Shown one piece after another: positions 2,875 through 58,278 of a stretch of DNA of 64,000 nucleotides. How positions within the stretch are numbered: position 1 is the stretch's first letter; each line of letters starts with the position of its first letter. Under the pieces are notes generated by a model. The model was not told the origin of the DNA. It did no database searches and saw only the letters and a program-made list of their open reading frames with translations. The position numbers and the translations under genes are program-made. The DNA is from Rhizaria sp. SCN 62-66 (lineage: Eukaryota), in the NCBI GenBank assembly GCA_001724265.1, contig MEDY01000138.1, positions 1 to 64,000 of the forward strand, read 5' to 3'.

Positions 2875-2906
<32 letters not shown>

Positions 2907-3464
2907 AATACTGATGCGCACGGTGGCATGATGAATACAAGTGCGAGCGTGAATGCGATTGCTAGCCACGCTGTGCTGCCGTCGCCGTTGCCGTCGCCGT
3001 CGCCGCGTTCGCAGTCTGAGTCTGGATCGGAGTCCCCGGTCTCTTCAGCCGCCGCAGCAGCCGCCGCTGCAACTGCTGCTGCTCCTGCCGCAGCTCCAGT
3101 CTCAGTCCCGAACTCAGCCTCAGCTTCTGCTTCGGCTTCGGCGACTACGACTGCGACGGGGACGGCGGCAACGTCCGCGGCGGCGGCTTCCGCCCCCGTC
3201 TCCGTGGCAGTGCCCGCGCCGAGCCTGGAGACTGCGGCGGCCGTGCTGGCCCTGCTGCGGCGCGCGCGGCACGTGTCGATCGGCGCAACCACCGCCCGCA
3301 GCCACCCTTTGCGGCCGGTGCGCGGCGATGGCGCCGCGTGGGCCGGCGTCGCCGCCGCCGCAACGCCCCAGGGGCTGCTCGACGTCATTGCCAAAGCGCA
3401 CGGCAGCAGCAGCGGGCTCGGCGGCGGCAGCGGCGGCGGCGAGTTAGAGCGACTGGAGAACTGA
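451..3464 (+). CDS. UROS: Uroporphyrinogen-III synthase (HemD/UROS), ~891 aa with large low-complexity insertions; exons 451-582, 749-2362, 2535-3464
   Basis: HemD motifs in order: DPY..LF...G...LPVLRF, YSGVVFTS, VGPAT, PLLLL...TLPDAL...IP, VYDT, YFSPSGV, SIGATTA, ATPQGL. GTACGT..AG introns keep the frame. Ends in TGA. Confidence 0.85.
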
Positions 3465-3870
3465 GACCACAGCACAGTGATACTGACTTGTTTTTGATGT
3501 TAGAGGATAGCGACATTGTTTACGTGTCAAAGAAAGATATTTAGTAATTTATTGGTTTATTTAGTAATTAAAACGCTTTGCATAATACAAAAAATGCGGA
3601 TTTTATCTCTGAAAACGCTACGTTCTCTGTTCTGTGGTTTTTGTGACTCTTCGGTTGGCAGGTTGGCGCCTGGCCATCCGATCGTTCCTTCGTTGGCCCA
3701 AATGAATCTTGATGTAAAATGATGGAACTTCCGTTAATTGCGAATTCCTCTTAAAAGCGAAAGCTAAATTAGCCACTGCACTATATTATCTTATTAAATC
3801 TCATATGGTTTCTATTTTGTTGTGATATAGCCCGACTTAATCTTTCCCGCGCAAAGCGAAAGTTGGAGCC

Positions 3871-5977
3871 ATGTCCTCTCCTCCCCACGGACCCACCAAG
3901 CCCCCAGCCGCTCTGCCCAGCGCAAGCGCTCACCCCACAGCTACATCCGCGAGCGCCGCGCCGTCGGATCTCTCCACACTCCGGATGACTGACGCGGACG
4001 CCTACGCTGCCGCGCTGGACGAGCACGCAAGCAGCGGTGCCGGCGCCGACAGCAGCGCCCGCCGCCGGCGCCGCCCGGCCGCCGCGTCGGCCGCCGCGGC
4101 CAACACGAGTCTCGTCTCGTCTAACTTCGTCAAGAACAACTACAAGCGCTCCATGCGACACGCGCGCAAGTCCGTTTCGGCGCTCGAGAAGGGGCTCGGC
4201 GCCCGGTACCGCAACGGCGTGCTCAAGTCCAGCTTCCGGCAGTCGCGGCGCGAGGCCGCGGCGACGGCGGCAGGGCACGAGAACAACGTGCTGTACCACG
4301 ACCTGCTCGACAGCGACGAGCTGGAGCTGATGCGCATCCACCAGGAGCTGCTCCGCGGCGAAAACAACAGCCGTTACAGTCGCAACTCGAACAATAACAA
4401 CAACAGTGCCGGCCACGGCAGCGCTGCGCGTCGCAATAGCCTGAGCTTGAGCGCGCACGCAGTCGTTGCCAGCGTGCTCGCCAGCGCAGAAGGCACCGCT
4501 TCCGCTGCCACTACTGCTGCCAACGCCGCGGCGACTGCGACGACGGTTGGCCGCGGCGTAACTTGCGGCGGCCTAACTTCAGGCGGCGGCCGGTCGGGCG
4601 CGCGCGCTCACAGCCACTCCCTGTCGTTCGACAGCCTGCACTCGGCGGCGGCCCACGCCGACAGCGCGACGCTGCTGCTCTCGGCGATGACCGGCGCGGG
4701 CGCGACTCTGGCTGTCATGGCCGCGGGCGCCAGCGAGGGCGAGCGTGCCGCCGCCGTGGCCGCCGCGGCCAGGGCGCGGAAGCAGGGGCTCGGGGTGAGC
4801 GAGGAGGTGACTGTGAGCGACCGCGCGCGGCTTAACTTGTTCGAGAGGCGGCTTGAGGAGATGAGCGAGCAGGAGCTCAGGGCGCAGTCTAAGGGGTACT
4901 TAGGCGCGTTTAAGGGCATTGGTTGGGGCAGTGTCAGTAAGCAAAACAGCAGCGGCACCAGCAGCAGCAACAGTAGCACATGCACGGCAAACGCGAACGT
5001 TAGCAATGATGCGACTCGTCCTGCTGCTCGTGCCAGTGCGACCGCGAGTGCGAATGCTATGAGCGACAACGACAATGGGCAGGGCTGTGGCGACGGCAAC
5101 GGCGACGACTGTGACGATGCCAGCGCTGCCGAGGCAGACTTGCGAGAGGACGATGACGATAACGAAGACGATTATGATCAGTATGAGTGCGATGATGGCG
5201 ACGAAGACGATCATGGCGATGAGGACGAGGACGACGAGGAGGGTTACAGCGGTGAGGACGCTGAGCTGGACATTGAGCAAACAGTGAACTCTGCCGACTC
5301 GTCGTCGCATGGAACACAGGGCGGCTTAAATTCTTCTTGCCCCGGCGGCTTGGCTTTGATGACGGAGGCCGAGGCGGCTATGCTCGACGACCTGTCAGGC
5401 CTCAGCGACCTCTCTGGCATCAGTGACTGTGAGCAGGGTGACGAGCAGGATGACTGTGCGCACGGACAGGAGCAAGAGCAGGAGCAAGAGTTCCGCGACT
5501 GTGAGCAGAAGCAGCAGAGCGCAAGTGACCGCGATCAGCAGCAGCGGCTCCAACGCAACGACGCCAGCAGTGACCGTGCTAATGACGGTGGCGACGGCAA
5601 CGGCAACGGCAGCGACGGTGGCTGCAACAGCGACAGCACAAGCGACAGTGACATTGAACTAGTCTTCCTTCCTAGCAGAGCTAGCAATAGTATCGTGGCC
5701 ACGGATGGCAACGCTTTGCTGACTGCCGGTGTGCGTAAGGTGACTGAGAAGTATGAGAAAGTCACAAGTTCCAACATCTTCAGTGTTTATAGTCAAGCCG
5801 CCAACTCGCGCCGCCCCCGCACAGCGGCCAGCGCGGCGGCCGCGAGTGCTGACGATGGCGCGGGTGTCACAAGTACCGCGGCGGCGGCTAAGGGGAAGGC
5901 AGGTAAGGGTACCTACATCGACACGAGTAACCCTTACCTGGACAAGAGCGACGCGTCACACCTCTTTTCACAGCAGT

Positions 5978-6039
<62 letters not shown>

Positions 6040-9000
6040 CAACAACAAGATCCTAACAGTCCCGCTAACAGCAGCTTGCAACCCAAGCCTGCATTTGTGG
6101 CGCCTAGCCCCTTTACTACAGCCACGCCTGCGGCCTCTGCCACCTCTGCAACGCTGCACAAGGCACTCAAGTCAGTCTTCGGCCACTCGACTTTCAACCC
6201 TGGTACGTTGCGAGAACGCAGTTGTTTGGCAATAAGAACATGCTGATTTAGATGCGTTGTAGTATTTCTATTTTTCCGTTTTATTGATATTCTTACACTT
6301 CATCTGGTATCAGCTCACACGTTGTTTACTTCATGCTATTGTTTGTTTCGCACTTTGCATTCACAGGCCAGCAAGAAGCAGTGTCGAATGTCTTACGCGG
6401 CAAATCAACCCTGCTTATCTTGCCGACTGGTGCGGGTAAATCGCTCTGTTACCAGCTGCCGTCGCTGTTTTTGCCCGGCTTAACTTTGGTGATCACGCCT
6501 CTGATCTCGCTGATGTTCGATCAACTGGCCCACTTACCACCCTCACTGCCAGGTACGTACTTACACAACTCCACTTTAACTAGTATTTGACGAGCTAAAA
6601 AAAGCTCAATTTGGCGTTCCACTCACTTATTCGTAATTTAATCATACGAGGCACGTTTCTGACGCACTACTAGCCTCTAAATTCATACTATGCATGTTAT
6701 ATACTCCGTTTTGTGCTATTTCACAGGCGCCGTGTGGTCCTCGGTGGCGACCCCGGCTGAAACGACCGCGCTAATGTCCCGGCTCCGCGCTGGCCTCATC
6801 AAAATCCTCTATCTCTCCCCCGAGCGCCTGCTCTCCCCGGGCTTCCTGCGCTTCGCCTCGCTGTCCCTGCCGGCCCCCGGCGTGTCGCTAGTCTGCGTGG
6901 ACGAGGCGCACTGCCTCTCTGAGTGGTCGCACAACTTCCGCCCAGGTACGCACTTATATCTCACATATCTGCCCAAAACATATCCAATCAGGTATATAAT
7001 ATGTACTCGTTTTGCTACACGGGCCATTCAATTCTTACCACTAGGTGCTCACATATCGCCCATTTACATAACGCTTTGTGTTGTTACGCTGATCTTCTTC
7101 ATAGGCTACTTGCGGCTGACACACCCGATTTTCTCGGTTTTGCGCGCCAAATGCGTGTTGGCGCTGACCGCAACGGCGACCCGGCTCACCGAGGACGTCA
7201 TTTGCCGCACACTGCGCATCGATGTCAAGCCGCCTAGCGACGAGGAGAGTGCTGGTGCGAGCTGCGTGCTGCGCGCTGCGGTGGGGCGGCCTAACTTGCT
7301 GCTCACGGCGAGCCTGGTTGACGGCGACGGCGACGGCAGCGGCAGCGGCAGCGGCAGCAGCTTCGGCGGCCTCCGCGTCAGCGAAATTCTCGCCATCTTG
7401 CAGTCCAAACAAGTCGCCTCCATCACCACGAAAGCCACCACGGACGGCGACGCTAAGACGAAGGCGGCGGCCGCAGCGACCAAATCAACCAAGGGCGGCG
7501 GCGTCAGGGCGAGCGAAGTGCCGAGCAGCATTGTGTACGTCGCGACGCAGTTCCTGGCTGAGCGCGTGGCGACTGAGCTCTCCACCGCGGGGGTCCGCGC
7601 CGAGCCCTACCATGCCGGGCTGACGGCCGCGCAGCGCCAGGCCACGCAGGCGCGCTTCATGGCCGGGAAGGCCCGCGTCGTCGTCGCCACCATCGCGTTC
7701 GGCATGGGGCTGGACAAGTCCGACGTGCGGGTTGTGATCCACCACTCGCTGCCGCGCACACTAGAGAACTACGTGCAAGTACGTCGCATTCTAGGATTTC
7801 TGTAATCGCAATTTGACAAGAAGCTATTTTTTCGCCATGTATCACTGTTGTATTTACGCTTATCAATGATGATTCCCTGATTTATAATGTTCTTATTGAT
7901 ATAATTCTTGCTATCTTGTGTTGCTTCTATTTTCCACGTGCGTCACAACAGGAAATCGGCCGTGCCGGCCGCGACGGTAGGCCCTCGCTGTGCCACGTGC
8001 TCTACTCCTCCGCGGACGCGCACCGCTCCCGGTCACTTGCGCACTCGGACGGCTTCGACCAGGCCACCGTGCTTCGCATTCTCACCGCGCTCTTCCCGCC
8101 GCAAAGCAGCGCGAGCAACACGAGTCGCCATATCGAACGCGACCGCAGTATCGGCGACAGCAGCGGCGACCACGGCGACCACAGTGACGATGGCTCTGCT
8201 GAGGCGGTGCTGTCCCCGTTCCACTTCACGGCTCTGAGCCACGCCGAGTACGAGAACACGCACGACCTCAAGGAGCTGGTGCTAGCGACCATTCTCACGC
8301 AGCTGGAACTTGTGCCCGTGAGTGCCGTCGAGAGCTTTCTCACCGCGTTCGACTGCGTTGTCGACGACGGTACTTACATTCCGGATCTTGCGTCTAAGGG
8401 GGGTGACCGCCGGACTGGTACTGACACGCTGGCTAAGCGCCCCCCGCTCCCGCGCGACTGGTGCCGTCTGTTCCACTTACACCTGATCACGTCCTACCCC
8501 GCGAATGTAAGTACCCCTTACGCGCGGCTAACCTCGTCCTTCCATGACAAGTGCACCCTTACATTCCTTTCGCAAACCCCTGAGGCTGCGGCTCTCAAGA
8601 GTGTCGTCATCAAGGAGGCACTTAAGCAAGCAGGAGTGCATCTAAGTGCCTTTGAGAATGAAGGCAGCAACAGCAATACCACTAACAATGGTCTAAGTAT
8701 CCCGAGTCTCAACACCTTGCCTTTCGCTAATAGTAGCACTCACTCGCACACAAGTGGCGGCACTAACTCGACTGTCGTAACTGTGACAAGTCAGGCCACT
8801 TTCACCGGTACATACACGTCCGCACTCACGGCCCGCAAAAGCAACGGCACCAACGCAGTCGCCGGGGTTGGCGACGATGCTATTGTGACTACTGGCGGCT
8901 ACTTTGGCCCGAAGCAACGCGGCACTTACACCGGCGGCGCTTACAGTCGTGGCGGCGGCCGCGGCGGCTTCCGCGGCCGCGGCGGCTACGGCAAAGGAGG

Positions 9001-10922
9001 CCATAACAGTGGCAGTCACTACCGCTCCAAAGCGGGCTTCAACTCGTACTCTTCGTCGAAACCCGGCAGTTACTACAGCAACAGCGGCGGCGGAGGCGGA
9101 GCACATGGGTCCGGCGGCCGGCGGTTTGGCGCGGCTAACACGCGCGGCAGCGTCACGTGTTCCATCAGTTCCCTCGCGCGCGCGCTGTGCTGGCACGTGT
9201 CGGACGTGCAGCGCGCGCTGATGCAGCTGCGCATGGACGGCGTCATCGGCACCGACTGGAGCGAGATGTCGGCCTGCGTGCACTCGATCGTCTCGCCGGG
9301 CCGCACAGTCACCCTTACAACGGATCTAAGTACCACAGAGTCAGACGCGAACGCAAACACAAGCGCGAACGCGCCGGGCGTGCGGCACGCCAGTGTCCTT
9401 GTGCGCGTGCGCGTGCGCTTGCACGCGGCGCGGGTGCTGTCACGGCTGGCCGAGTATCTGACTTGGCGTATGACGACGCTGGAGCAGGCGGGCGTGCGCA
9501 AGGTCGACATTGTGGAGAAGGCGCTCTCGCTCGTCGCCGTGCCCAGCGCGGGGCTGGCGCTGAAGCAGTTCGAGGGAATGAAGGCCGCGTTTGAAGAGCA
9601 AACTCAGGCCGCCAAGTCTAGCAAGAGCAGCGCGAGTACGAACTCTGGCGCTGTCTTGCAGAGTATTATTGGTGCGTATTTCGATGCGATTGACGATGAA
9701 AGCTTTCGGACTGCTCTACTCTCGATTAAGAACAAGAGCATCATCAAGAACAAAAGCCCTTGTCTCAGTCTCTCTGAAGCCACTAATGATGATGATGATG
9801 TAAGTTGCGCTGCTGTGACGGAGGTAGAGCCTTTGCAAGTGACCGTGAACAGAGTTCTTCGGGCAGCAAACGCGCGCGCAGCTGAGGCCGCCGCGGCCGC
9901 CCTCGCGACGACCCGCAGCCTCCGCCACAGCCTCAGTCTGAACGCTCTCAGTGCCCCCGTCGCCGCGGACGTCGGCGTGAGCGGGTACTACGAAGAGCGG
10001 AAGCCGACTGTGGCGAGTGTTGTGATCCGGATGCCGGACCAGGCTAAGGGGGCACTTACATCCAGCGTTATCGACGACAGCGGTGACAGCAACAATAACT
10101 CAAGCGCTCACACAAAGAGCCGCGAGGCTGTAACCGCAGCTCGTACTAATGCTGCCGGTATCCTGAGTGCTGCGAATGCCGCCGTTGCTGCCGATGCGCT
10201 GAGCTCGCCAGTCATGTCGACGATTGCGCCAACGATTGCGCCGTTTGCGGCTGCCCCCGAGTCCGAGTCGTGGCGCTCGCACCCGACCCTTACACTCGAC
10301 AACGCGACCTACTTAGACCTCACGTCGTCTCTCTTCGCCTTCGTCAAGCAGCACGTGCTGCCCGCGCTCGACAACCACAGGAAGCAGCTCCGGCGGCACG
10401 CCCGGGGGCAAGTCGCATCTGCAACCGCGAGCGGCACGGCGTCGAGCGGCACGGTGTCGAGCGGCACGGCGCCGAGCGGTGTGATAATGACCGCGCGGAC
10501 CGTGGCCCGCGTGTTCCACGGGCTCCCGTCCCCGGCGTTCCCGCTCGAGGCGTGGAGGCGGACCGGCGAGTGGGGGCAGTGGGTGCGCGTGCCGTTCGAG
10601 GCGGTGCTGTGCGCGGCCGAGACGGCTATGGAACGCGCCGGGGCTGGCGAATGGGCGCGAGGCGGACTGACCGTGGGGCGCGGGGGCGGCCTAACTTTGG
10701 GCGCTGAGGGCGGGGCGGCGGGGCTTCCAGTTGCGGGCGAGGCTGGCGACGCCGCTTTGCGCAAGAGTAAGAGTAAGAGCAGGAGTCACGGTACGAAACG
10801 GAGTAAGGCTGGTGATGATGGTGATGCTGCTGTTCCGCCTCAACACAAGTCGAGGTCAAAGTCAAAGAATAAGGGGAAGGAGAAGGGGGCATCCAAGTGG
10901 GAGGACTTAAACTCCTTTGTTG

Positions 10923-10956
<34 letters not shown>

Positions 10957-11365
10957 CGACGATGATAATGACGGTGATGACTGCAATGCCTCAGAGTCCG
11001 ATGGTGCGATTCACAGTGACTCCGATGACGCCGTTCGCCGCAGCCGAGGGACATCTAAGGGTGGTGCAAGTAAGGGCCTCGCGAGCGTCAGTGGCTCGTC
11101 GTCTAAGGGTGTCAAGAAGGCTCGCCTGAGTAACACGACGACAGTTGATGATGCTGCTGTTATCGCCGACAGCGACGATGAGATTGATGTTGACGCTCGC
11201 GCTGTCGACTCTGGGGCCGCGGTCTCCCACGCACCTATTGTTGACGACGACGATTTCACGAGCGGTAACGCGACGACTCGCACACAGCAACAGCAACAGC
11301 CACACAGTGAGGCAGCTGATGTGGACGATGATGACGATGAAGTCTCGCAGTTGTTGGGGTTCTAA
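3871..11365 (+). CDS. RECQL4: RECQL4-like DNA helicase, ~2274 codons; exons 3871-6202, 6367-6552, 6727-6945, 7105-7778, 7952-11365; contains an in-frame TAG at 5977-5979
   Basis: RecQ motifs [74 protein letters not shown]4-type N-terminal NFVKNN and C-terminal [14 protein letters not shown]. Ends in TAA. Confidence 0.88.
5971..6048 (+). repeat. (CAG)n(CAA)n polyglutamine tract interrupted by one TAG
   Basis: Reads CAG CAG TAG (CAG)17 (CAA)6, in frame with the RECQL4 start at 3871. Confidence 0.95.
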
Positions 11366-11643
11366 CACGATACGTACCAATGCTAAAGCAAAAACCTAAC
11401 ACTCAATGATAATTAGTTCTTTATATTTAGTCAATCATTCGAATACAAACCAATGATGTTCATACATTTCACAATTATGTATTTTCTACTTTGATATCTA
11501 CGCACAACTGGCCATATCAATCATAACAAGACAACAAGACATCATTATTTAAAACTAAAATGTCACTTGGTTCTTCAACTTAAACTCTCCTCCCACACGT
11601 GTAAGGACGTCCCCTACTTAGATTCCCCCGCACGCACTGGCGC

Positions 11644-15083: not shown

Positions 15084-15613
15084 ATGTCCGCTAGGCACTC
15101 CGCCGCCGCGTTTAGTAAACTCTTGCCCGTCGTTGCGCCGCCCTCCCTGTCCCCGCCCCCCCTCTCCGGCCCCGTCTCGGCCCCGCGCACGCTTGCGCCC
15201 GCCGCCGCAGCGGCCGCCCAGCCCGCCGCGTCGCCCAAGTCGTCCAGCGGCCGCTCTCTGAGCTCGACAATGTCCTCCCCTCACCACTCGCCCCACTCGC
15301 AGGCGCAGGCGCAGGCGCAGGGTCAGGGCCAGGCGCAGCGCCAGCAGCAACACCAGCAGCAGCAGGGACCGGGGCAGCAGGCGCAGTTGGCCTTCGGCTC
15401 CGCGTCTCCCCCCGCCCCAGCCTCGACTGCAGCCGCAGCCGCTGCGGCGACGGCTTCGTTCTACGCCCTCCCGTTCGCCACCGCCTCGGCCGCCACCGCC
15501 GCCGCCACCGGGTCTGCCTCTGGCCCCGTCGCTGCCCCCGGCCCCGGCTCTGGCGCTGGCACTGGCTCGGGCTCTATGAACACTGGCCGTGGCAACAGCA
15601 ACAACAGCAACAA

Positions 15614-15670
<57 letters not shown>

Positions 15671-16775
15671 GAGCAGCAGCCGCAGCGGCCGCAATGCGGG
15701 CAATCCCAACAGCAACAACAACAACCGTGGCCGCAACAACAACAACACCAACACCAACAGCACCAACTCGACTGCTGCCACTACTGCTGCTGCCGCTGCT
15801 AACGCTCATGGCAACCCTGCTCTCAGCAACCTCGGCCTCAGCTTCGTCACCGCTGTTGCGACGACGACCCACACCACTGGCAGCAACACGAACATGACTG
15901 GCTCCGGCGCCAGCAGCGTCAACGCCAACGGCGGGGTCGCCACTCCGTCCTCTTTGTCACTCGCCGACCGAGTCAGCGCCGCCGGCGGCAGTCCAAGTAC
16001 CCCCGCGGTCGCTGCGGCTGCTGCTGGTTCGAGTGTAAGCAGCGCTAGTCCCCCTTACACCGCGACCAGCAGCGGCAGCGGCAGCGGCGGCGGTGGCAGC
16101 GGCGCCCCGGCCGCGGCAACGACGGCGGCGGCGGGTGCGGCTGCCCCTTACAATGTAAGTAGCTACGCGCAATCGCGCTCAGCGCACGCCGCGGCGTCCT
16201 TCTTCCCGGTCCCGGCCTCCGCGCTGGCTGCGGCAGGGCTGATCGTCGTCCCTTTGGCCTCCGCCTCAGCCTCAGCATCCACAGCCTCAGCCACAGCGGG
16301 AGCAGGAGCGAGTGCGAACGCAAGCGACGTTGCTGCGGCGACTGGGAGTGAGGCGCTTTCGTTCTCCTCGCTGTCGCTCATGCAGCCGCTGGCTACCGGG
16401 CACACCAGTGCCGCCGGCGCCGCGGGCAGCGTTGTCGCGGGCAGCGGCAACAGCGGCAACAAAGCCCAGAACCAGAGCCAGAGCCAGAGCCAGAGCTCCG
16501 TGGTCGCCGCTGTCGTCAACGGTCTTAGTGTAAGTACCCCGCTCAAGAGCGCTCTGCGGGCCAAAGTGACCCCGTTTGTGCCGTCCCGGGGCTTCGCCGC
16601 CTCCGTCGCCGCCGCCGCTGCCGCTGCCACTGCCGCCGCCGCGGCGAACAATGCCAATCATAACAACGCTACTGGGCACAACAGCAACAACAACAGCAGC
16701 AGCAGTAGTACTGGCAGTCAGGCGAGCATGGGTACCGGCAGTTTCACCGCAGTCGGCACCCGTGGCGGCTCTAGC

Positions 16776-16815
<40 letters not shown>

Positions 16816-21404: not shown

Positions 21405-22117
21405 CGCGCGCAGCAGCAGTCACGGTGGCAGGAAGGAGTTACGAGAACAGTGACTTGTTAAGCTGACATGACACGATGTCATTTGTTATTTGACCTTTAT
21501 TTAGTTTGTTAAATAGTTTGTTTGTTTGAGTGATATTTTTTGATCATGCATGTAGATAATACATCGTATATACGGACGCAGTCTCCAGTTTTATACTCAG
21601 TAGTTGTTCAGCCTGAGCATGAGCAAACTCTGACTGAGCAATCGCCAAATCGATCTCTTTCTCAGCCAAAGCGTCCGCCCGATCAAGCTTGCACTGGGCC
21701 ATATGCATTTTATCACCAACATCATTCAATTGCGCAGCATAACCGCTGGTGGCTTCGCAGTTGTAGAGTAACCAAAATGATAACCTGCTGTGCTGTACAC
21801 CAGGAGCGAGACCATGCATTCATGGCTATCAATTCACTTCGAACTGGCGATACAAACTCCGTGCATATCGGAGGAGAAATAATGAGACGGAGTTGTGTGT
21901 ACATGATGCGCATACATATTATGGCTATCATTGAAGCATATCGCTACTGTTGTTTCTGAACGCCTCCGCGGCACCGGCTCCAGGTGTGATAGTGGTGACT
22001 GAACGAGACGACGAGTAATGGATATAAAGTCTTTCCTTTGTATTCTAATCACATAAAAACACCACCAAACCGCACAACACACACACAACACTTAATAAAA
22101 CGAAGATCGTCAGGAGC

Positions 22118-24684: not shown

Positions 24685-24722
<38 letters not shown>

Positions 24723-38477: not shown

Positions 38478-38846
38478 ATGTCTTTCTTCCGTGCCATCAA
38501 CATGACCTACCTCCAGTTCGTCAACCGGTACGTCCCCTTTGTCTTTACCTTCACACTTACCACACCTTCTTCTACCTACTGCTATCCTCCGCACTGTATT
38601 TGCCCTCGTGTGTCCACTCTGTGAATCCTCTTTCTGATCCATCTTCGCTCACTCTTCCTCTCGCTTCTTGCTTCGTTTGCATTCACGCCTCGCGCTCACA
38701 GCTCCACCACTGCGGCTCGCTCCGTTGTTAAGGACGCCGTCAAGTCCAAGTACGACGCTAAGGAGCAGTTCCACTTCATCCGCCAGAAGTGGAATGCCGG
38801 CAAGTTCGAGCCCAAGACCACCAACTCCAACATCGTCACCCACTAA
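38478..38846 (+). CDS. ATP5F1E: Mitochondrial F1-ATP synthase epsilon subunit, 64 aa; exons 38478-38527, 38702-38846 (not a single ORF in the supplied track)
   Basis: The spliced product MSFFRAINMTYLQFVNRSTTAARSVVKDAVKSKYDAKEQFHFIRQKWNAGKFEPKTTNSNIVTH fits the epsilon pattern (R..mtYl..n....aR..K....W..GK). High-expression codon bias. Ends in TAA. Confidence 0.82.
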
Positions 38847-48221: not shown

Positions 48222-51200
48222 TCACCACTCCTGCTGCTCCTCTTCATCCCCGTCACCAGTCGACTCGCCGTGGTTGTTGTTGTGCGCCACCGACGGCACC
48301 GGCAGGTCCACGTCGTCAATCCCGCTCGCGCCAGTACTCGCGGGGTGACTCTCGGGGTGACTCGCGGCGGGGCGGTCCCGGGGCGTGTTGCCGTTGCGCG
48401 GGGTCGGCGGGCCAGGGGCGAAAATGACAGACTCGTCCGACAGCCCCAGCGGCAGCCCGAGGCCCACGTCGGCCGCGGTGACAGAGCCCGCGCTGGTGAG
48501 GTCTACGACGTCGCCGACCGCACCCGCGCCGTTATCGCCGCCGCCGCTGTGGTGCTGCCCGTGGGGGTGGTGCTGAAGGCCAGCGTGACTGGCGCTGTCG
48601 TGGCCGTGGCCGTGGGCAGACGCGGTCTTGTTTCTCCCACTTGCAGCGCTGCTGCTGTTGGCGGTGTGGCCGTTAGCCTGGCCGTGCGACAGCGGCTGCC
48701 CGGAGTGGGCCGCGAACGGCGACAGTCCGCTCGGCGGCGGCGCAGGCCTGCGCACCGGGCTCGTGTTCGCGACGGCGGTGCCAGCAGCGGGCCTGATGTT
48801 GTTGTTGTTCGCAGCAGGGGCAGCAGCGGCGGCGGCGGCGGCGGCGGCGCGGGAGGCCTTGGCGCGTTCTGCCAAGCGGGCCGTGACGGCGGCGGCGGCG
48901 CGGCTGGGCGTTGCGCTCGCGCTCGCGGTGCCGCTAGAGCCGGCTCCGGCCGCAGCGCCTCCCGCGTTGTTACTATGGGAGATGAAGGAGCGGCGGCGGG
49001 CGGGGGTGGTGTTGGCGGACACGCTGCCAGCGCCAGCGCCAGTCGCCGCACCTGCACTGGTGGCAACAGCACCGGCAGCGGATGGCTGACTCGTGGCATT
49101 GTGACTGTCGTTCGCGGCGGCGGCCGCGGCGGGGGCTCTAGCGTTGTTAGAAACCTTTCTAGGGCTCGCGTACGCGTTGTTGTGGCCGTTGCCGTTGCCG
49201 CCGGCGTAGTTGTGCGAGCTGCTGGCCATACTGAGCGCGCGGGGGGTGATGGCCATGTTGAAGTCGTCGCTGGAGAGCGCGTCGTCGAACAAATCGTCCG
49301 CGCCGACCACGCTGTCGCCACTCGGGGGGTTGTTGTTGTTGGCATTGCTCGCGGCAGCAGCAGGGGCGCTGGCGTCCTTCTCAGCAGCAGCAGCAGCAGC
49401 AGCAGGGTGGCCATGTGCGGCGTCTGTCACAACAGTTGTATTGGTCGATGCGACCGACGACGACGGAGACAGCACGACCGTGAGCGCATACTGACCACCA
49501 GCAGCAGCAGCGCTTGCGTTGTTGTTGTTGATGTTGTGGATAAGCGAGGGCACTGGAAGCTCAGTCACGACGTCGCCCTCCTCCGCGTCAATACCACCGG
49601 CACCGCGACCGCTCGCAGCACTCACGGCGCTCACACTCGCCGTGCTCGCGTGGCTACTGCCGCCGCCGCCGTTGGAATTCGCGCTGTTGCTGTGACGGTT
49701 GGTGCTGTTGGCGAGGGGCGTGACGGTGCGCGAGTACGCTGGGGGTGCGCCAGAGCAGTCCCGCGGCGACCCGAAGCGACTGCTGTTACTCGCAGTACTG
49801 GCGTTCAGGTCGTGCTCTGTCGACGCCGCGACCGCGTTCAGCGTCAGCGCGTCGCTGCCGCCACTGCCGGTACCGGCGACGGAGGCGCTGCTGAGGGCCT
49901 TGCTGCAGACAGCCGTGCTGATGCTGGTCGCGGGGGCGGCCACGATCTCATCGTCGTCGTCGTCACCGTGATACTCGCCGAACGGCGACAGCTTCGCGTG
50001 GCGCGGGCTCTCAATGGCGGGGCACAGGCCGGCGCCGCTGCCGCTGTCGACGTCGACGTCGACGAGGCTGTGCTCAGCAAACGACAGACTAGCCAACTGC
50101 GACTGCGGCTGCAAGTGCGCGTGCGAGTGCGAGGCGTTGGCAAACGCGGCGGCAGCGACGGGGGTGAGAGTCGGAGCGACGATCTCGTCACAGTCATCGT
50201 CGTCGTCGTCGGCAACGGCGGGCGCGGCCGCGTTGAGCGCGTGCACCTCGACGGTGGGGCTAGCAGTGACAACAACAGCAGCAGCAGCAGAGGCTGGGAC
50301 AGGAGTGCTCGCAGTGGCCGCAGGCTTCGGCTTAGCTGCAGCGGCGACGCCAGGGGAGCCAAACGAGTACCGAGTCTTCGCATTCGCACCGGCACCGGCA
50401 GCAGCGCCCGCGCCCGCCTTCGTACTATGGGCAGGGCTCGCCATAATGCTCCCCGTGCTCTGGCGGCTTAACTTCTTCGCCCCCGCCGCCGCGGCCGCGG
50501 GCGACACGAGTCCGGTGCTGCTCAGAGTGGTGCGCGTCGAGGGGGACGCTGGGGGCAGCCCGGTCATCGTGGTGCGCCGCGACAGCTTGCTGCCGCTGCC
50601 GGGGCCCGTATTGGCGACGGCGTTGGAGGGCGACGTGAGGCTGCCCTTGACGCGCACCGACGGCGACGGCGACGGCGACATGGCACTGACGGCGCCCGCG
50701 TTAGCGCTGCTGCTGCTGCTACCACCGCCCGCGGCGGCGGCGGCCTTTTTGGCCTGCTTGAGTTTGTATTCGCGCAGGCGCTGGCGTGCAGCGTCAGAGG
50801 CCGACAAGCCCGCGCCTGCGCCGGCGGCCGCGGTCGTCGTCGGAGTCGGCGGCGGCTGAAGCAGCAACGCCGTGCCCGCCACGTTGGCCTCACCGGCGGC
50901 GCTGGCATTGGCGGCGTTGTTTGTGACTGAGGAGCGGCGCGAGCGCGGTAGCGATGACGACATCAGCGGCGTCGCAGCATTGGCAGTCGCGGTGGGCGAG
51001 GGCGCCGTAACCGCGAGTGTGATTGAGGGCGAAGTCAGCGAGGCGGACGTGCGCGACTGCGCGGGCTTCGGAGGAGGCGTCATGAACGGAGAGTCCGCCG
51101 TGGCGGGGGATGAGGGCGCAAGATATGGAGAGGGCGGCGCTGGCGGAGGGATCAGAGACGCCTTCGTCTGCGCTGCTGTCGCTGGGGCCGCAACGGGCAG

Positions 51201-54200
51201 GGGCACGACAACTGCAGCGAGCTCTGGCTCAGGCTCAGGCTCGGCCTCAGTCGGTGTCCCCGGCTCGGTGTTCGCTTCGCCGCTCAAGTTGTTATCAGCA
51301 GAGAGGCGGAACGACTCCAAGCTATTGCTGTTGCTGTTGCTGTTGCTGCTAATGTCGGTCTCCTGCTTAGACTGCGCAATTCTCCCTCTCTCTCCATCCC
51401 TGTCCCTGTCCTTGTTGGCGAGCGCCAGCGCGATGAGCGGGCTGCCAGTGGCCAGCGCAAGCATCGTCGGCGTCACGACGGCTGACACGGCGGCGCAGCG
51501 GCACTTGCAGTTATCCGCCGCCCCCGCACTTGCATCGCCGGCGTCCACGTCTAAGGGGGTCGTGCTGAGACCGCTGTCCGCATTGACGGCGGCGCTGACG
51601 GGGGGCTTGGGACGCGGGTGGGCCGCGGCGACGAGCGTGCGCAGCGCCTCCCGCAGCTGCTTGATCTGCGCGTCCTTCAGCATCAGCACCGCGTTGTTCG
51701 GTGGCGGCGCTGCGTGTGCATGCGGGTGCAAGTGCGCGTTCCCGTGGTACGGCGAGCCAGAGCCAGAGCCGGCGCTGGCGCTGTGTTGGGTGAGCGCTGC
51801 CAGCGAGGGGGAGCGCGGCACTGCGCCGGAGATGCGCAGACTCGCGCTGGCGCTGCCAGCCGTACTCGCACTCGCTCCAGCAGTGTTGGTGGCGCTTACG
51901 CTGTGGCCGGGGCTTGAGGTCGCAGCAAGCGCGTTGCTGCCCGCGCTGCTGCTGCTGCTGCGCGCTGCTTTCGTGGCGGCGGCGAGACGCGTTGTGAGGT
52001 CGTCGATACGGCTCTTGTGGATGACGGCGTCACGGTTCTAAATGATATGAAACAAACATATATGCAGCATACAGCACAAATTAGCCAAAATTAGAGTGCA
52101 ATATAACTGTCTTTTACACATCGTTTTACTTGAAAGCACACACACATCACTCGTTATTGACAAGTGTGCCACATTTCACTAAATTCACTCGATGTCACTT
52201 TGTTCTACAGTCATCACAGTTCACGTACCCTGTCAATTTGCAGCTGCGCAAGCTTACTCTCCGCAGCCTCCCTCTCCCTGATCGCGTCCTTGGTCGCCTG
52301 CTGCTCCTTCTTCAGCAGCGCCGCCGCCGCCGCCCCCGCTACGCCCGCAGCGCCCGCGCCACCGGAAGCACTGTTTGTTTTCTTGTCAGCGAGCTGCTGT
52401 GCGCGCCAGAGCTCGCGCTTGAGCTCGTCCGTCTCCTTGGCCTTAGCCGCCGCAGTGACGGAGGCCTCTTTGAGCTTAGCCGCGGCGTCCGCGCGGGCTT
52501 TTTCGACCTGCTCGGCCTTGTCGGCGACCTAGAAAATGTCGTGAAACACGAATCAAAGAAAAGGTGGGATTAGGCCAAAAGTGATATGAATATGATAAAA
52601 TACTGTGAGTAAGATGTAATGGAGCATTGAATTATAAGAACAATACAAGGTTGACAGAAAGCAACTTGTTGTTATCTTAGAGACATATGTAGCCCCGCGT
52701 ACCTGTGCTTCGAGCGCCTTGATGGTCTTGAGCGCGGCCCTCTGCGCCGCCGCATGCTTCGCGCTGGCCTCCTCCAGCAGCAGCTTAAAGCGCAGCGCGG
52801 CGCCGGCGTCAGCGTTGGCGGTGGCCGCCGCGGGGAGACGGACCGTGCGGACGCGGCGCGCAAACAGCAGCGTTGAATGGGACTCGAACTGGTGCACCGC
52901 GCTCGGGGACAGAGTGACAATGAGCGCAGTCTTGCTGTTGCCGCCCAGCGAGTCCTGCAGCAGGTACGTCAGCTTGCTGTTGCGATACGGCACGTGCTGG
53001 CCCTGCTGCTGCTGCTCAGAGTTAGCGGCTGCGTTCGCAGTAGAGCCAGTCGTCACAGCGTTCGAGTTGGTATTCGCATTGTTATTGTTGCTGTTGTTAT
53101 TATTGGAGGCGGTGGCGAGTGCTTGGAAGACGTCCGACAACGCCGCAAGCGATTTTCCGATGTGCGCCGCCTCAACAAGCCTGATGCCCTGCGCACCGGT
53201 CTTGGCCACGCGCTCCGAGCCCGCCAGGTCGACCAGCGTGAGCTTGCCGAAGGTGCGCGCGCGCGTCGCCCGGTTGTGGCCCACCAGCGACAGCTGCAGG
53301 ATCACGTGCGAGCGCGTTGAGTGCTCGTTCATGCCCGTCGCGCCCACCGCCCTGTTGTTGACGCCGCGGTCGATCACGGCCAGCGCGTGCGCCGCGGTCG
53401 GACACAGCGCGCGCGTGGAGCCGGCGACGAACATACCGTGGCGACCGCGCCGCACGCGCAGGTCCGTCGACTCGGCGGCGGCGGCGGCCGCGGCCGCGGC
53501 GGCCGCGGCAGTCGCTGTCGCGGAGGTCAGCGTCATATTCTGGAGTAGCAGAGCAAATATGCAAGTTTTCGAGACATAAAATAGTGTTTTTAAAATATAA
53601 ATCAATGTTATTAGTGACATATTTGAGTTTAGGCTGGCGTCAGCAGTGCATAGTTCATCAAATATCCTTGTTATACAAATATCAATTTAGACTTGCAAGT
53701 CAGGTCACAATGCTCTTGACCACTTCATCTTGGAAGGACGTACGCTGAGAGTGCGCGCCGGGAACGGCGACCCCATGCCGCCGCCAGTCGCCGCCGCAGC
53801 GGAGCTGACTGCGCGGTTCAGCGCGGGGGACCCCACCGTGCCGGCAGTGTTGGCGTTGCCGCTGCCGCCGGCGCCGGCACCGGTGCTAGGATGGCGTCGG
53901 GGCTTGAGGCCGGAAGTCGCAGGCGAACCCAGTTGCTGCTGCGACTGCTGCTCTTTGTTCGCACCAGCAGCAGTGCTGTTTCCGGTCGCGCTCGCGTTCG
54001 CCGCGTCAATGACCGCGCTAGAGCTGCTGGCGCTAGCGTTGTTGTTGTTGCTGTTGCTGCTGCTGCTGCTGCTGTCGGCGTTAAGATTGAGGTCGAGGAA
54101 CAGATCGTCGTCGTCGGTGCCCTCAGCGCTCCACCGAGTGAAGCGAGCCTGCGTCAACAGCTGCGTTTGAGTCAGCCCATCAACAACAACGCCGCCAGCG

Positions 54201-57200
54201 ACGTTAGAATTCGCGTCGGGTTGACTCGGGGCGGTGGCAACAAGCGTCATGTTGGCGTTACCAGTGTTGGCGGCCACGTTGTTGGCGCTAGCGTGGGACG
54301 GCAGGCGGGAGAACACCGCCGCTTCGGCCGCGACGGGCGCGAGCAAGTCGCGGATCGTCTCGTTGTAGATCTCCAGCAGCGACACGTGCAGCTTATACTC
54401 GAATCCTTCGTCGTCGCTGCCGCTGGCGACACCGCTGTTCGCGTTACCATCGCCATTCTCATCAATGGACGCAGCTGCGAGAGCGTTGGCGAAGTTGTTG
54501 CTATTGCTGCTACCGCGGGCGAGTGCGGCGGCGACCATTGCGTGCACGGCCCTGGGGGCGACGCCGGGATCCCCGCCGCTGCCGAACATCGTGTGGGTCT
54601 TGCCGGATCCGGTCTGTCCGTACGAGAACACGCACGCGTTGAATCCCTCCAGCACCTCAGTCACCAGGTCCCCGACCTGCGCGTACACGTCCGCCTGCGA
54701 GTCCAGAGGCGTGAGCACGCGATCCAGCGAGAAGAGCGAGTAGCTGGCAGGGTCGCGAATGTGGCTCGGCAGCGCCGCTAATGCAGCCGTCGCATTCTCG
54801 CCCGCACCGACAAGCGCGTCCGTGTTGTCGCCGCCGTCGGCAAGGGCGAGGGCGCTGTCGCCGTCAGGTGCAGGGACCGTGAGCGCGGGGGTCGCGACTC
54901 CGTCAGCGCTGTTGGAGTTTGAGTCGGCCCCACCCGCAGCACCGCTAGCAGTAGCGGCCGCAGCGGTAGCGTTGGTGGATGGCGCGACAGCGCCGGGTTT
55001 CAACACCGCGACTTGCTTGATATTGACGAACTCAACCGTGGTCAAGCCGCCCGCAAATGCAGTTGCAATCTCGAGCTGGCCCTTAGACGGCAGGGGAGCA
55101 CTTACATTAGCGAAGTTGAAGCCAGCAGCGTTCGCCGCGCGCGGCGTACTTACACTCAGCGCGCGGGGAGTCCCACTCGTACTTACTCCCTGCTGCTGCT
55201 GCTGCTGCTGCTGCTGTTGTTGTTGTTGCAGTAAATACATCTGCTGCTGTTGCTGCTGCTGTTTGAGCGACAGTAGCCGCGCCTTGACCGCGGCCTGCTG
55301 CGCCAGCGGCCGCGGCGCCTGCTTCTGCTCCGCGGTGGACAGCGGCCGGACACGGGCCAGCACCCGGATGCTGCCAAACGTGCCGGCAAAACCGCCGTTG
55401 TTGCCGCCGATGAGGCCGGCGACGAAGCTGTTAGGGTTGAACGCAGCGGAGGCGTTGCTGGTATGATCGGGCATAAAGGGGAGCGACGCCGTGCGGTTGT
55501 AGCTCACCATAGGCATACTGGTACTGTTGCTGTTGTTGCTGCTGTTGCTGTAGAACTGCGCCGAGGAGGGCGTGAGGGGCGGCGATACAGGGAGCACGAT
55601 CGGCGCGCATCTGTTGCTGTTGGCGCCGCTGTTGACAGCAAACGCAGGCGTGTTGAGGTTGATCGTGGTCTCACCGTCGGCCGGAGCAACGCTGCTGCTT
55701 GCAATCGCGCTCGCGTTCGCGCTTGCCTTCGCCGCCTCAGCCTCCGCCTTGGCCTCAGCCGCCGCCTTGACCTCAGCCTCCGCCTTGGCCTCGGCCGCAG
55801 CCGCGGCCGCAGTGGCAGCGGCGGCCTCCGCCCTGGCCTTCTCCAGCTCCTTCTTGAGCGCTCCCTCCGCCGCCGCGCTGGCGCTGATCGCTGCCGCCAC
55901 CGCCGCCGCGACGGCCGCTGCGCGCTTCTTGTCCCCCTCGTCGTTCGCAGCTGCCACGGCGGCGGCCACGGCGGCGGCGGTCTTGCTGTCGGCGTCGGCG
56001 GCAGCGGCGGCCGCGGTGGCATCGGCCTCGGCGCGCATGCCTTGGAGCGCCACGGCGTTGGTCTCAGCGATCGACGCGCGCTGCACCGACTGTGCGCACG
56101 CGGCCTGACTTTCGACGAGCGCGGCCTCGAGCTCAGCGATACGAGCATTAGCAGTGACACTGTCAGTGTTAGTTTCGTTGTCGTTGTCAGTGTCGGTCTT
56201 AGTCTCGGTTGCAGTCACGGTGTTGTTGCTACTGTTCTTTGCATTTGCTTCTGCTTCAGACTTTGCAGCAGCAACAGCAGCAGCTATGGCAGTTTCCCTC
56301 TCTGCCTTAGCTTCAGCCTGAGCCTGAGCCCTCGCTTCAGCGACAGCCTTCGCAGTCGCGGCCTCCGCCTCCGCCGCAGTCACGCTGGTCTCGGGTGTCG
56401 CGCTTGCAGTTGCAGCTGTCGCGGCAGCGGCAGCGGCAGCGGCGGCGGTGGCGGCGGCGTGTCGAGACGCCTCGGCCTCGAACGCGGCCGCGTCCCTCTC
56501 GGCCACGAGCGCCTCGCACTGCGCCTGCAGGCTGTCGCGGGTACCCGTGAGGAGCTCGCGCTCCGCCGCAGCCAGGTCGCGCTCTGCCACGGCCGCGTCG
56601 AGCTCGGTGCGAGTGGCCTCCGCGAGCGCAGTCGCCGCGGCAAGCTGTGCGCTTGCGTCGTGCAGATGTGCGCTCGTGTCCCGCAGTTTCTCACTGGCTG
56701 CAGAGAGCTGGGCGGAGTAGTCGTCGCGCTCGGCCTCGGAGATCTCGAGTCTTTCCTCCAGATCCTTGGCTTTGGCTTCAGACGCCTTGGCCTGCGAGGC
56801 AAGCTCCGCAGTCTTGGCTTCCAGATCCTTCGTTTTAGCTTCGAGCTCGGCTGATGTGGCACGCAGAGCCGCGAGCTCGGCGTTGGCAGCCTCTGCGGCA
56901 GCCTGCGCCTCCGCAAGCGCCTTCTTGAGCTGCTCACAGTCACTCTCAGACGGCGCACTTGCAGGTGCAGTCACCGTCGCCGTCGCGTCGCTGTCAGTGC
57001 TAGTTGACTGTCGCGCAGCGAGCTGTAGCTGCACGGTGGCCAACTGCGCGGCCGCAATCTCCGCCTTGGCCTCGGCCTCCTCTTTCTCAGCTTTCGCGAC
57101 CTCGAGTCTCTCTACGGCGTTCTCGGCCACATCGTGCGCCTCGTCTCGCTCCCGCTCCGCCGCCGCCAGGGACGCGGCTGCGCGCTGCCGCTCGCGGGCC

Positions 57201-57577
57201 TCGCGGTCCGCCGCGTCCTCGGCCGCGCTCAGCCGCGCGCGCAGCGCAGCCAGGGCCTCGCTGTTGGCCGCAGCCGCAGTCGCGGTCGCAGTGGCAGCGG
57301 CGAGTTGAGACTCGTGTTCGGCGAGTGTGATGAAGCCTTCGCCAGGAGAGCCAGCGGTAGTACTGTTAGAGCTATTGTCGGTAGAGCTCGCGTTGGATAG
57401 AGCTTGAGCACGCGCATCGGCGAGCTGTGCTGTGAGCGTGGAGACTTCGCTTTCCAGCTCGTCCTCAATGGTTTTGCTGCTTTCCTCAAGCTCTTTGAAC
57501 TCTCTCTCGAGCACGCGGTAGCGGGCCTCCCAGTCGCCGCTCTCCGCAGTGGGCGCGAGCGGGGACGGGGAGCTCAT
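48222..57577 (-). CDS. Kinesin-14-like motor protein, ~2928 aa, with N-terminal coiled coil, internal motor and long C-terminal tail; exons 57577-53744, 53539-52703, 52528-52229, 52037-48222
   Basis: Neck GSIRVLARVRP, P-loop YGQTGSGKTHTM, LEIYNETIRDLL, switch I NEHSTRSH, switch II LVDLAGSER, HVPYRNSKLTYLLQDSLGGNSKT. Ends in TGA. Confidence 0.88.
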
Positions 57578-58278
57578 GATGGAGACGGTTCAGGCTAGGA
57601 ATGGGGGGGATTTGGGCTCTTGTTGCTGAAGGCTAAGCTGAAGTACAGTGGGATCCGTTGGCGAACCGGGGGGTTGGAAACACAAGAGAGGATTTAGTGA
57701 GCTATATAACGAAATTTAAGACTAAAATTCAATATTACTGAGTACATACAGACGCAATATTCCTAAAATTGCACATTTAATGCTAAATGAAGCTGGAATT
57801 GATGATGTCGGCGGGGCGAAATGAACAGTGACAAAGCGTTAAGATCAATGACACGCGCCCGTCGCGCCGATAGCCTGCGCAAGGGGTATGTAGTAAAATC
57901 TCAAAGAGAAATTAAGTTATAATATAAATCACACACTTGTTTGTTCAGCTCACAAACTTGTATCTCTCTTGACGATCAATGGGCAGTGCTAGATTGCGAG
58001 AAAGTTGCATCGGCAATGGCTTCGTCCAATAACGGTGGTGACTGCGGTCCTAGTCCACATCCCAAGCAGGCCCACCAAGTCATCGATGTACTGACATGAT
58101 TTGATCGTCAACTAACACCAAACTTAGTTCATAGCAGATCAGTACCGCGATCTCACCGAATTTCTTTTTATACCCTACCTCGCGCGTTTTGTGTCTCTCT
58201 ACACAGCTTTCCCGTCCCAAAGTTCCTCTGTTCAGTAAGAGCCGTTGAGACTATCCCCCGCCGTCCGCCCGCGCCGAA

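Follow-up and report, generated by a model that had tools for sequence, protein, structure and literature searches.

An in-frame TAG in a RecQ4-family helicase gene

The stretch analysed here, hereafter the window, comprises 64,000 nucleotides (nt) of contig MEDY01000138.1 from the assembly of Rhizaria sp. SCN 62-66 (GCA_001724265.1), and contains on its forward strand a predicted RecQ4-family helicase gene with a TAG codon inside its reading frame. Five exons and four introns assemble into a 2,274-codon frame that ends with a TAA at 11363 and holds exactly one internal stop. As the first-pass annotation of the window had stated, the frame opened by the ATG at 3871 (+) runs in phase into the TAG at 5977-5979, which is preceded by CAG CAG (5971-5976) and followed from 5980 by 23 glutamine codons, namely 17 CAG (5980-6030) and six CAA (6031-6048). 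Past this tract the same frame continues to the GTACGT donor at 6203 and, beyond the acceptor at 6366, reads GQQEAV...LPTGAGKS. The observation of an in-frame TAG at 5977 was thereby confirmed.

Exon 1 (3871-6202), which is open but for this TAG, covers an N-terminal module, an acidic, low-complexity linker, the polyglutamine (polyQ) tract and the beginning of the helicase domain. The AT-rich intron 1 (6203-6366, GTACGT…CACAG, 164 nt), across which the frame is restored, separates it from exon 2 (6367-6552), which carries the Walker A motif and the first part of the DEAD-box domain (Pfam PF00270, E = 3.8e-10). Intron 2 (6553-6726, GTACGT…CACAG) precedes exon 3 (6727-6945) with the DEAH box (PF00270, E = 4.1e-4), and intron 3 (6946-7104, GTACGC…CATAG) precedes exon 4 (7105-7778) with the helicase C-terminal lobe (PF00271, E = 8.1e-14). 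After intron 4 (7779-7951, GTACGT…AACAG), exon 5 (7952-11365) encodes motif VI (EIGRAGRDG) and, judging from the sequence and a structure match, a long RecQ4-type C-terminal region that closes with the TAA at 11363-11365. All features lie on the forward strand, and all four introns begin with GTACG and restore the frame.

The helicase part downstream of the TAG is undamaged, as had been noted earlier: DEAD and Helicase_C matches fall on exons 2-4, and the motifs PTGAGKS, DEAHC and EIGRAGRDG can be read, so that Walker A, DEAH, the helicase C lobe and motif VI of a superfamily 2 RecQ helicase core are all present. The best solved-structure match of exon 4 was human RECQL4 (5lst_A, E = 2e-18), narrowly ahead of RECQ1 (2e-17), and the sole solved-structure match of exon 5 was again 5lst_A, a weak one (E = 0.0067). 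By these comparisons, the predicted product is a RecQ4-family (RECQL4/Hrq1-type) helicase, nearer to RECQL4 than to the other RecQ paralogues, narrowly. The upstream open reading frame (ORF) of 702 residues contains the NFVKNN motif reported in the first-pass annotation (residues 85-90); this N-terminal module may resemble the NYVRLNMK region of RECQL4, and the ORF matched no Pfam family at E ≤ 0.01, Sld2 included. A frame scan from the TAG to Walker A found no in-frame ATG, which makes an ordinary start of the helicase downstream of the stop impossible. Glutamine accounts for 88 of the 2,274 residues (3.9%) of the whole predicted protein. As a separate observation, the coding exons of the gene repeatedly contain a word resembling 'GGCCTAACTT' and read as Gly-Leu-Thr (4553-4587, 7290-7300 and 10652-10713), where Tandem Repeats Finder reports short repeats of 15-24 nt that contain it.

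The TAG lies within a 78-nt trinucleotide repeat, CAG CAG TAG (CAG)17 (CAA)6, at 5971-6048 (+), the longest CAG tract of the window; Tandem Repeats Finder describes 5971-6032 as 20.7 copies of a period of 3 with 96% matches. Twenty-five glutamine codons surround the stop locally, the base at +4 is a C, and the TAG is one C>T transition away from CAG. By chance, one TAG trinucleotide within a 2,274-codon frame is unremarkable. What is notable is that the sequence on either side of TAG 5977 is coding and that both parts have their homologues within one ORF in relatives.

Detectable relatives of the upstream ORF were confined to residues 81-165 (4111-4365), a conserved motif region with 59% identity to residues 62-146 of a metagenomic protein (P0001) in which a single ORF of 1,011 residues spans both the N-terminal motif and the helicase domain. 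A profile search of 1.84 billion representatives returned five proteins with the motif, two of which (P0124, 95 aa (amino acids); P0126, 111 aa) are fragments too short to reach the helicase. In all three that are long enough (P0001, 1011 aa; P0125, 327 aa; P0127, 511 aa), the motif leads into a DEAD-box helicase without a stop, indicating that TAG 5977 is a break inside one gene, as the first-pass annotation had implied. The linker between motif and helicase is variable in these proteins (about 130-450 residues) and contains no polyQ in any of the three, which places TAG 5977 in a non-conserved low-complexity spacer. Searches with the 702-residue ORF found one relative among proteins of near length and none among longer ones, and its exact sequence is absent from a collection of 15 billion proteins. 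An identical sequence is present in the ESM Atlas, and at least one gene call has therefore stopped at TAG 5977, although that entry may stem from the same assembly; the feature and structure neighbours of the ORF in the ESM Atlas were meaningless (TM-score, a structure-similarity score, ≤ 0.37).

TAG usage in the window and the meaning of UAG

TAG usage was tallied over coding pieces curated with conservative limits, that is, long ORFs in GC-rich segments whose frames are fixed by homology or length. These pieces comprise 15,767 codons, with 436 CAG, 105 CAA and one TAG; TAG 5977 is hence the only in-frame TAG in 14 genes. The first-pass annotation had counted about three candidates, a number that did not survive curation, since the others are intronic or lie in a 5′ untranslated region (UTR). 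TAG 52040 (-) belongs to the TTTAG acceptor of a kinesin intron, TAG 43696 stands 17 nt after a GTATGT donor, and TAG 33369 (-) lies in a 5′ UTR upstream of an ATG at about 33262; all three were rejected as coding. CARTAGCAR strings are more frequent in the window than expected (11 matches as opposed to 1.9), and the 10 matches other than that at 5977 were likewise rejected as sense TAGs, being out of frame or antisense to serine, alanine or leucine repeats. The earlier statement that no gene ends in TAG held: the 14 genes with a visible end use TGA (8) or TAA (6) and never TAG. In this small sample, such an outcome has a probability of 0.23-0.04 if TAG normally ends 10-20% of genes.

The first-pass annotation had proposed that UAG is a rare sense codon here, probably glutamine. 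Two forms of this proposal can be told apart. A mature UAG reassignment is excluded by the window itself. At the density seen in Iotanema, about 22 TAGs would be expected in 14 genes against the single one found (PMC5304391), and in place of many in-frame UAGs at conserved glutamine positions, the 15,767 codons include one TAG, which stands in a tract that is not conserved and from which the residue is not inferable by alignment. An early, low-usage stage, in which UAG means glutamine genome-wide through a tRNA-Gln(CUA) or an altered eRF1 and TAGs arise by CAG>TAG changes, is kept alive only by the count of 0/14 TAG ends. It would also agree with the position of the sole in-frame TAG, flanked by glutamine codons in an otherwise intact gene, and with the existence of UAG-only reassignments in nuclear genomes (PMC5304391, PMC11687900). 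However, only 98 of the 542 glutamine positions in the curated pieces (18%) have glutamine on both sides; a randomly placed glutamine-type TAG would fall in a Gln-Gln context about one time in five and more often elsewhere. Nor does the 64-kb window contain a tRNA gene of any kind or any Rfam match, and eRF1 is not among its genes. We consider this early stage quite unlikely.

There is a slim chance that we are looking at an activated-sludge protist at the earliest capture of UAG as glutamine, in which UAG would already be gone from gene ends (0/14) and tRNA-Gln would decode it often enough for CAG>UAG changes to be tolerated first in polyQ tracts. To our knowledge, such an incipient stage of UAG-only reassignment has never been caught in nature. 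If the idea were true, the RecQ4 gene would be a snapshot of a stop-to-sense reassignment under way, and should the rest of the genome also be without TAG ends and show recurrent in-frame TAGs, the organism would become an important case of incipient UAG-only reassignment. Of the original proposal, what stands is that glutamine would be the residue expected if this UAG is decoded, given the ancestral codon CAG and a tRNA-Gln that is a near-cognate reader of UAG (PMC13192750); a genome-wide sense meaning does not stand, with one TAG in 15,767 codons.

The remainder of the window is compact, GC-rich eukaryotic sequence, with exons of 60-70% GC and introns and spacers of about 30-40% GC and 100-350 nt. 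The host is an uncultured, GC-rich, intron-bearing microbial eukaryote of bioreactor and wastewater metagenomes. Trinucleotide repeats are very dense in coding exons (197 Tandem Repeats Finder rows in 64 kb); CAG/GCA/AGC, CAA, GAC and CGC units give most genes poly-Q, -S, -A, -N and -D tracts, for example at 15592-15686, 16775-16815, 10924-10962 and 24687-24719. On the reverse strand, the kinesin motor ORFs 52553-53686 and 53705-57589 are joined by introns (GTACGC…TCTAG, 52529-52702; GTACGT…TTTAG, about 52041-52228) to a 1,271-codon ORF (48222-52037), making one gene of about 3,000 codons (48222-57589) that ends with the TGA at 48222. A GC-rich stretch without a long ORF holds a small two-exon ORF at 38478-38846 (+), with an ATG at 38478, a GTACGT intron at 38528-38701 and a TAA at 38844; it has no Pfam match and may resemble mitochondrial ATP synthase epsilon. 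An Rrp6/HRDC-like gene and a cystathionine gamma-lyase (CGL) gene converge with their 3′ ends, and between them, at 21544-21720 (-), there is a short ORF that stops at a TGA and looks coiled-coil-like by eye; this ORF is a candidate gene and was left out of the 14 gene ends.

Two scans of metagenome contigs, one with the N-terminal motif alignment of the RecQ4 gene (595 pattern matches, none confirmed) and one with the neighbouring CGL (80 loci), found no other copy of the window's species. The only near relative among the CGL loci (L001, 1,585 nt) shares 86% identity and ends its gene with TAA, and a second locus (L002, 68%) belongs to a different organism with 52% GC. Over its length (1-1585), the CGL of L001 apparently lacks the 5′ intron present in the window's gene. 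The window's CGL protein is present in the 15-billion collection (P0002, four contigs, the longest of 397,483 nt), and its nearest named sequences are a dinoflagellate transcriptome record (73%), Colponema (65%), Planoprotostelium (65%) and oomycetes (61-64%).

Origin and predicted decoding of the TAG

Nine listed sequencing runs from seven studies, all of them bioreactor or wastewater metagenomes and none on record as RNA, contain the stretch or part of it, four of them with half of its words or more. Logan contigs of four runs (X1, X2, X4 and X9) were compared with the window over 3600-11600, outside the repeat-masked interval 5967-6057. The contigs of X1 and X4 show no differing letter over the parts they cover, and X9 contributes short pieces at repeats and one piece of 217 nt (6497-6713) that includes intron sequence. 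X2 represents a slightly different strain, and its 12 listed substitutions give a hint of continuing constraint on the gene: 11 are non-coding, in intron 4 (8) or the 3′ UTR (3), and the single exonic one lies at a contig end. The X2 differences in the 3′ UTR fall within 11366-11600, and intron 4 (7779-7951) has in addition one deletion, its changes being partly clustered at 7874-7913. Across about 4.5 kb of covered exon, that exonic substitution, itself doubtful, is the only one, and synonymous sites too appear frozen. No Logan contig bridges the tract, so base 5977 lies outside what the contigs show.

These data bear on whether the T belongs to the majority sequence at all. If it entered the consensus within the repeat, as an assembly or sequencing artefact or as a minority allele, the majority sequence would be CAG and the gene intact. 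The site does lie in the window's longest CAG tract, inside which the Logan contigs of three runs all end, and 31-mers such as A(CAG)10 and TAG(CAG)9 are found at other window loci (15616 (+), 24720 (-) and 2890-2908 (-)); the window has six occurrences of CAGTAGCAG, which fall in other frames or on other strands. When a k=31 graph was built from the window only, it predicted that contigs would end 33 letters past 5966 with the C allele and 40 with the T allele, and the end of the 35x X1 contig, 34 nt past 5966, is nearer to the C expectation, a weak hint at most. The contig-end geometry nevertheless does not agree exactly with either allele, and it is influenced by loci beyond those seen. We rejected the attempt to call the allele from the contig ends (X1 34, X2 32 and X4 14 letters past 5966), since neither prediction was matched exactly; the right-hand ends fall at 6019 and 6021 against a predicted 6003, and related k-mers occur at other loci. 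Substitution errors are also rare in a 35x consensus, and the ESM Atlas copy of the 702-residue ORF ends at the same TAG, though it may share the assembly. An artefact or a minority allele is, in our estimate, unlikely.

The TAG might instead be removed from the mRNA, either by excision of an in-frame intron or by U-to-C editing. Positions 5976-6059 form a GT…AG segment of 84 nt (28 codons), the excision of which would keep the frame (CA|T = His) and delete the whole polyQ tract. Its donor, GTAGCA, however, differs from those of all 26 introns accepted in the window on curation by hand, which start with GTA[CT]G. Accepted introns measure about 150-250 nt with a GC fraction of 0.28-0.45, whereas 5976-6059 is a GC-richer, coding-type repeat in which a CTAAC stands only 2 nt ahead of the AG. 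We know of no U-to-C editing in nuclear transcripts of comparable systems. Removal of the TAG from the mRNA by either route is hardly credible.

Most likely, one C>T change, whether real or introduced at the assembly level, has placed a plausibly leaky nonsense codon in the polyQ linker of a RecQ4-family gene. We consider it probable, if far from certain, that the code is standard and that TAG 5977 is such a change of one CAG in a non-conserved stretch where it may be partly read through. The caveat attached to the first-pass annotation, which allowed for an error, a null allele or local readthrough, is the better reading, compared with a sense UAG. Under the nonsense variant, most ribosomes would stop at TAG 5977 and release a 702-residue N-terminal fragment, while a few percent would accept the near-cognate tRNA-Gln(CUG) at the UAG, insert glutamine and go on to produce the full-length helicase of 2,274 residues. 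The allele would then be hypomorphic instead of null, which would explain how 1,570 codons past the stop and four introns can remain intact alongside it. It may also be that the variant is simply of recent origin, or that a diploid carries it as one of its alleles.

Several points weigh against the leaky nonsense variant. With four introns behind it, a premature exon 1 stop would be expected to trigger nonsense-mediated decay. The absence of TAG from 14 gene ends exerts a mild, weak pull toward UAG not being a normal stop here. A stimulatory RNA structure downstream was not predicted: the fold of 5977-6110 scored z = 0.19 against shuffles, and folding beyond the TAG yields a generic CAG hairpin only. 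The T at 5977 is that of the assembled sequence; that it is real and fixed is presumed, and that it is read through is predicted. In yeast, readthrough scaled with a transcript-wide glutamine content of 7-20%, compared with 3.9% protein-wide here; CAG flanks brought a small increase only, weaker than that of CAA flanks; and nonsense-mediated decay factors restrained readthrough in Q-rich transcripts (PMC13192750).

Readthrough could also have been selected, with the UAG kept so that one gene gives two products: much of an N-terminal protein of replication type and little of the full-length helicase. The stop falls precisely in the linker that connects the two modules, its context is of a leaky kind (CAG before and after, C at +4; PMC13192750) and the downstream ORF is intact. 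Functionally, such an arrangement would be analogous to yeast, which has Sld2 and Hrq1 as separate genes; Sld2 and the RecQ4-type helicase, two proteins in yeast, are fused in human RECQL4 (PMC4227796 and PMC7718736). Yet the linker is free of stops in all three informative relatives, and the region downstream is without predicted structure, as given above. The tobamovirus readthrough signal is UAG-CAR-YYA, and that of gammaretroviruses is a UAG followed by a pseudoknot; positions +4 to +9 after the TAG read CAGCAG, which agrees with CAR, but +7 to +9 are CAG and not YYA. Conservation of the TAG between strains lends no support either, as the site falls within the masked 5967-6057. Programmed readthrough under selection is very unlikely in our view.

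If the nonsense variant is indeed the correct explanation, the locus would be a natural nonsense change in a polyQ tract, a useful field case and no surprise. The case also cautions against counting single in-frame TAGs in CAG repeats as code changes in scans.

Comparison with known systems

The closest parallel comes from yeast, where recent work predicts unusual tolerance of nonsense changes in polyQ tracts, owing to readthrough by tRNA-Gln. According to the preprint by Leslie et al. (2026, PMC13192750), premature UAG or UAA codons flanked by glutamine codons and with C at +4 gave full-length product at a level of 2-8%; readthrough of CAG-TAG-CAA amounted to 1.6% in ADE2 and 4.7% in SNF5, mass spectrometry showed that glutamine is inserted specifically in Q-rich readthrough, and snf5-Q225X grew like the wild type, unlike a clean truncation. 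The TAG of the window shares with the yeast QXQ alleles of that study (snf5-Q225X, snf5-Q267X and cyc8-Q648X) the glutamine-codon flanks, the C at +4 and the position in a glutamine-rich low-complexity region. It differs from them in being a natural variant of an uncultured protist known from sequence alone, in having CAG flanks and in being followed by four introns. As CAG-UAG-CAG with C at +4 corresponds to the context permissive in yeast, a CAG>TAG change here would be expected to be leaky and to restore the original residue.

The resemblance to nuclear codes in which only UAG is reassigned, namely UAG=Gln in Iotanema spirale and UAG=Leu in the rhizarian exLh (Panek et al. 2017, PMC5304391), is partial. 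The tallies of that paper give 204 in-frame UAGs in 126 Iotanema genes and 384 in 71 exLh genes, that is, 1.6-5.4 per gene and often at conserved sites, with TAG at none of 119 and none of 71 gene ends. As in those lineages, the window uses TAA and TGA as terminators, TAG is absent from its 14 gene ends and a TAG stands in frame in an intact gene; unlike them, it has a single in-frame TAG across 14 genes, and this lies at a repeat that is not conserved. Nonsense alleles that are young or heterozygous, as known from draft genomes of protists, likewise present a single premature TAG where glutamine is expected, in a gene otherwise intact. With metazoan RECQL4, the predicted protein shares the helicase core (5lst is its best match) and, in the window's clade, an N-terminal non-helicase module fused to it; unlike RECQL4, or Sld2 and Hrq1, it has an N-terminal module without a Pfam match and, at 2,274 aa, is a very long protein with abundant low-complexity tracts.

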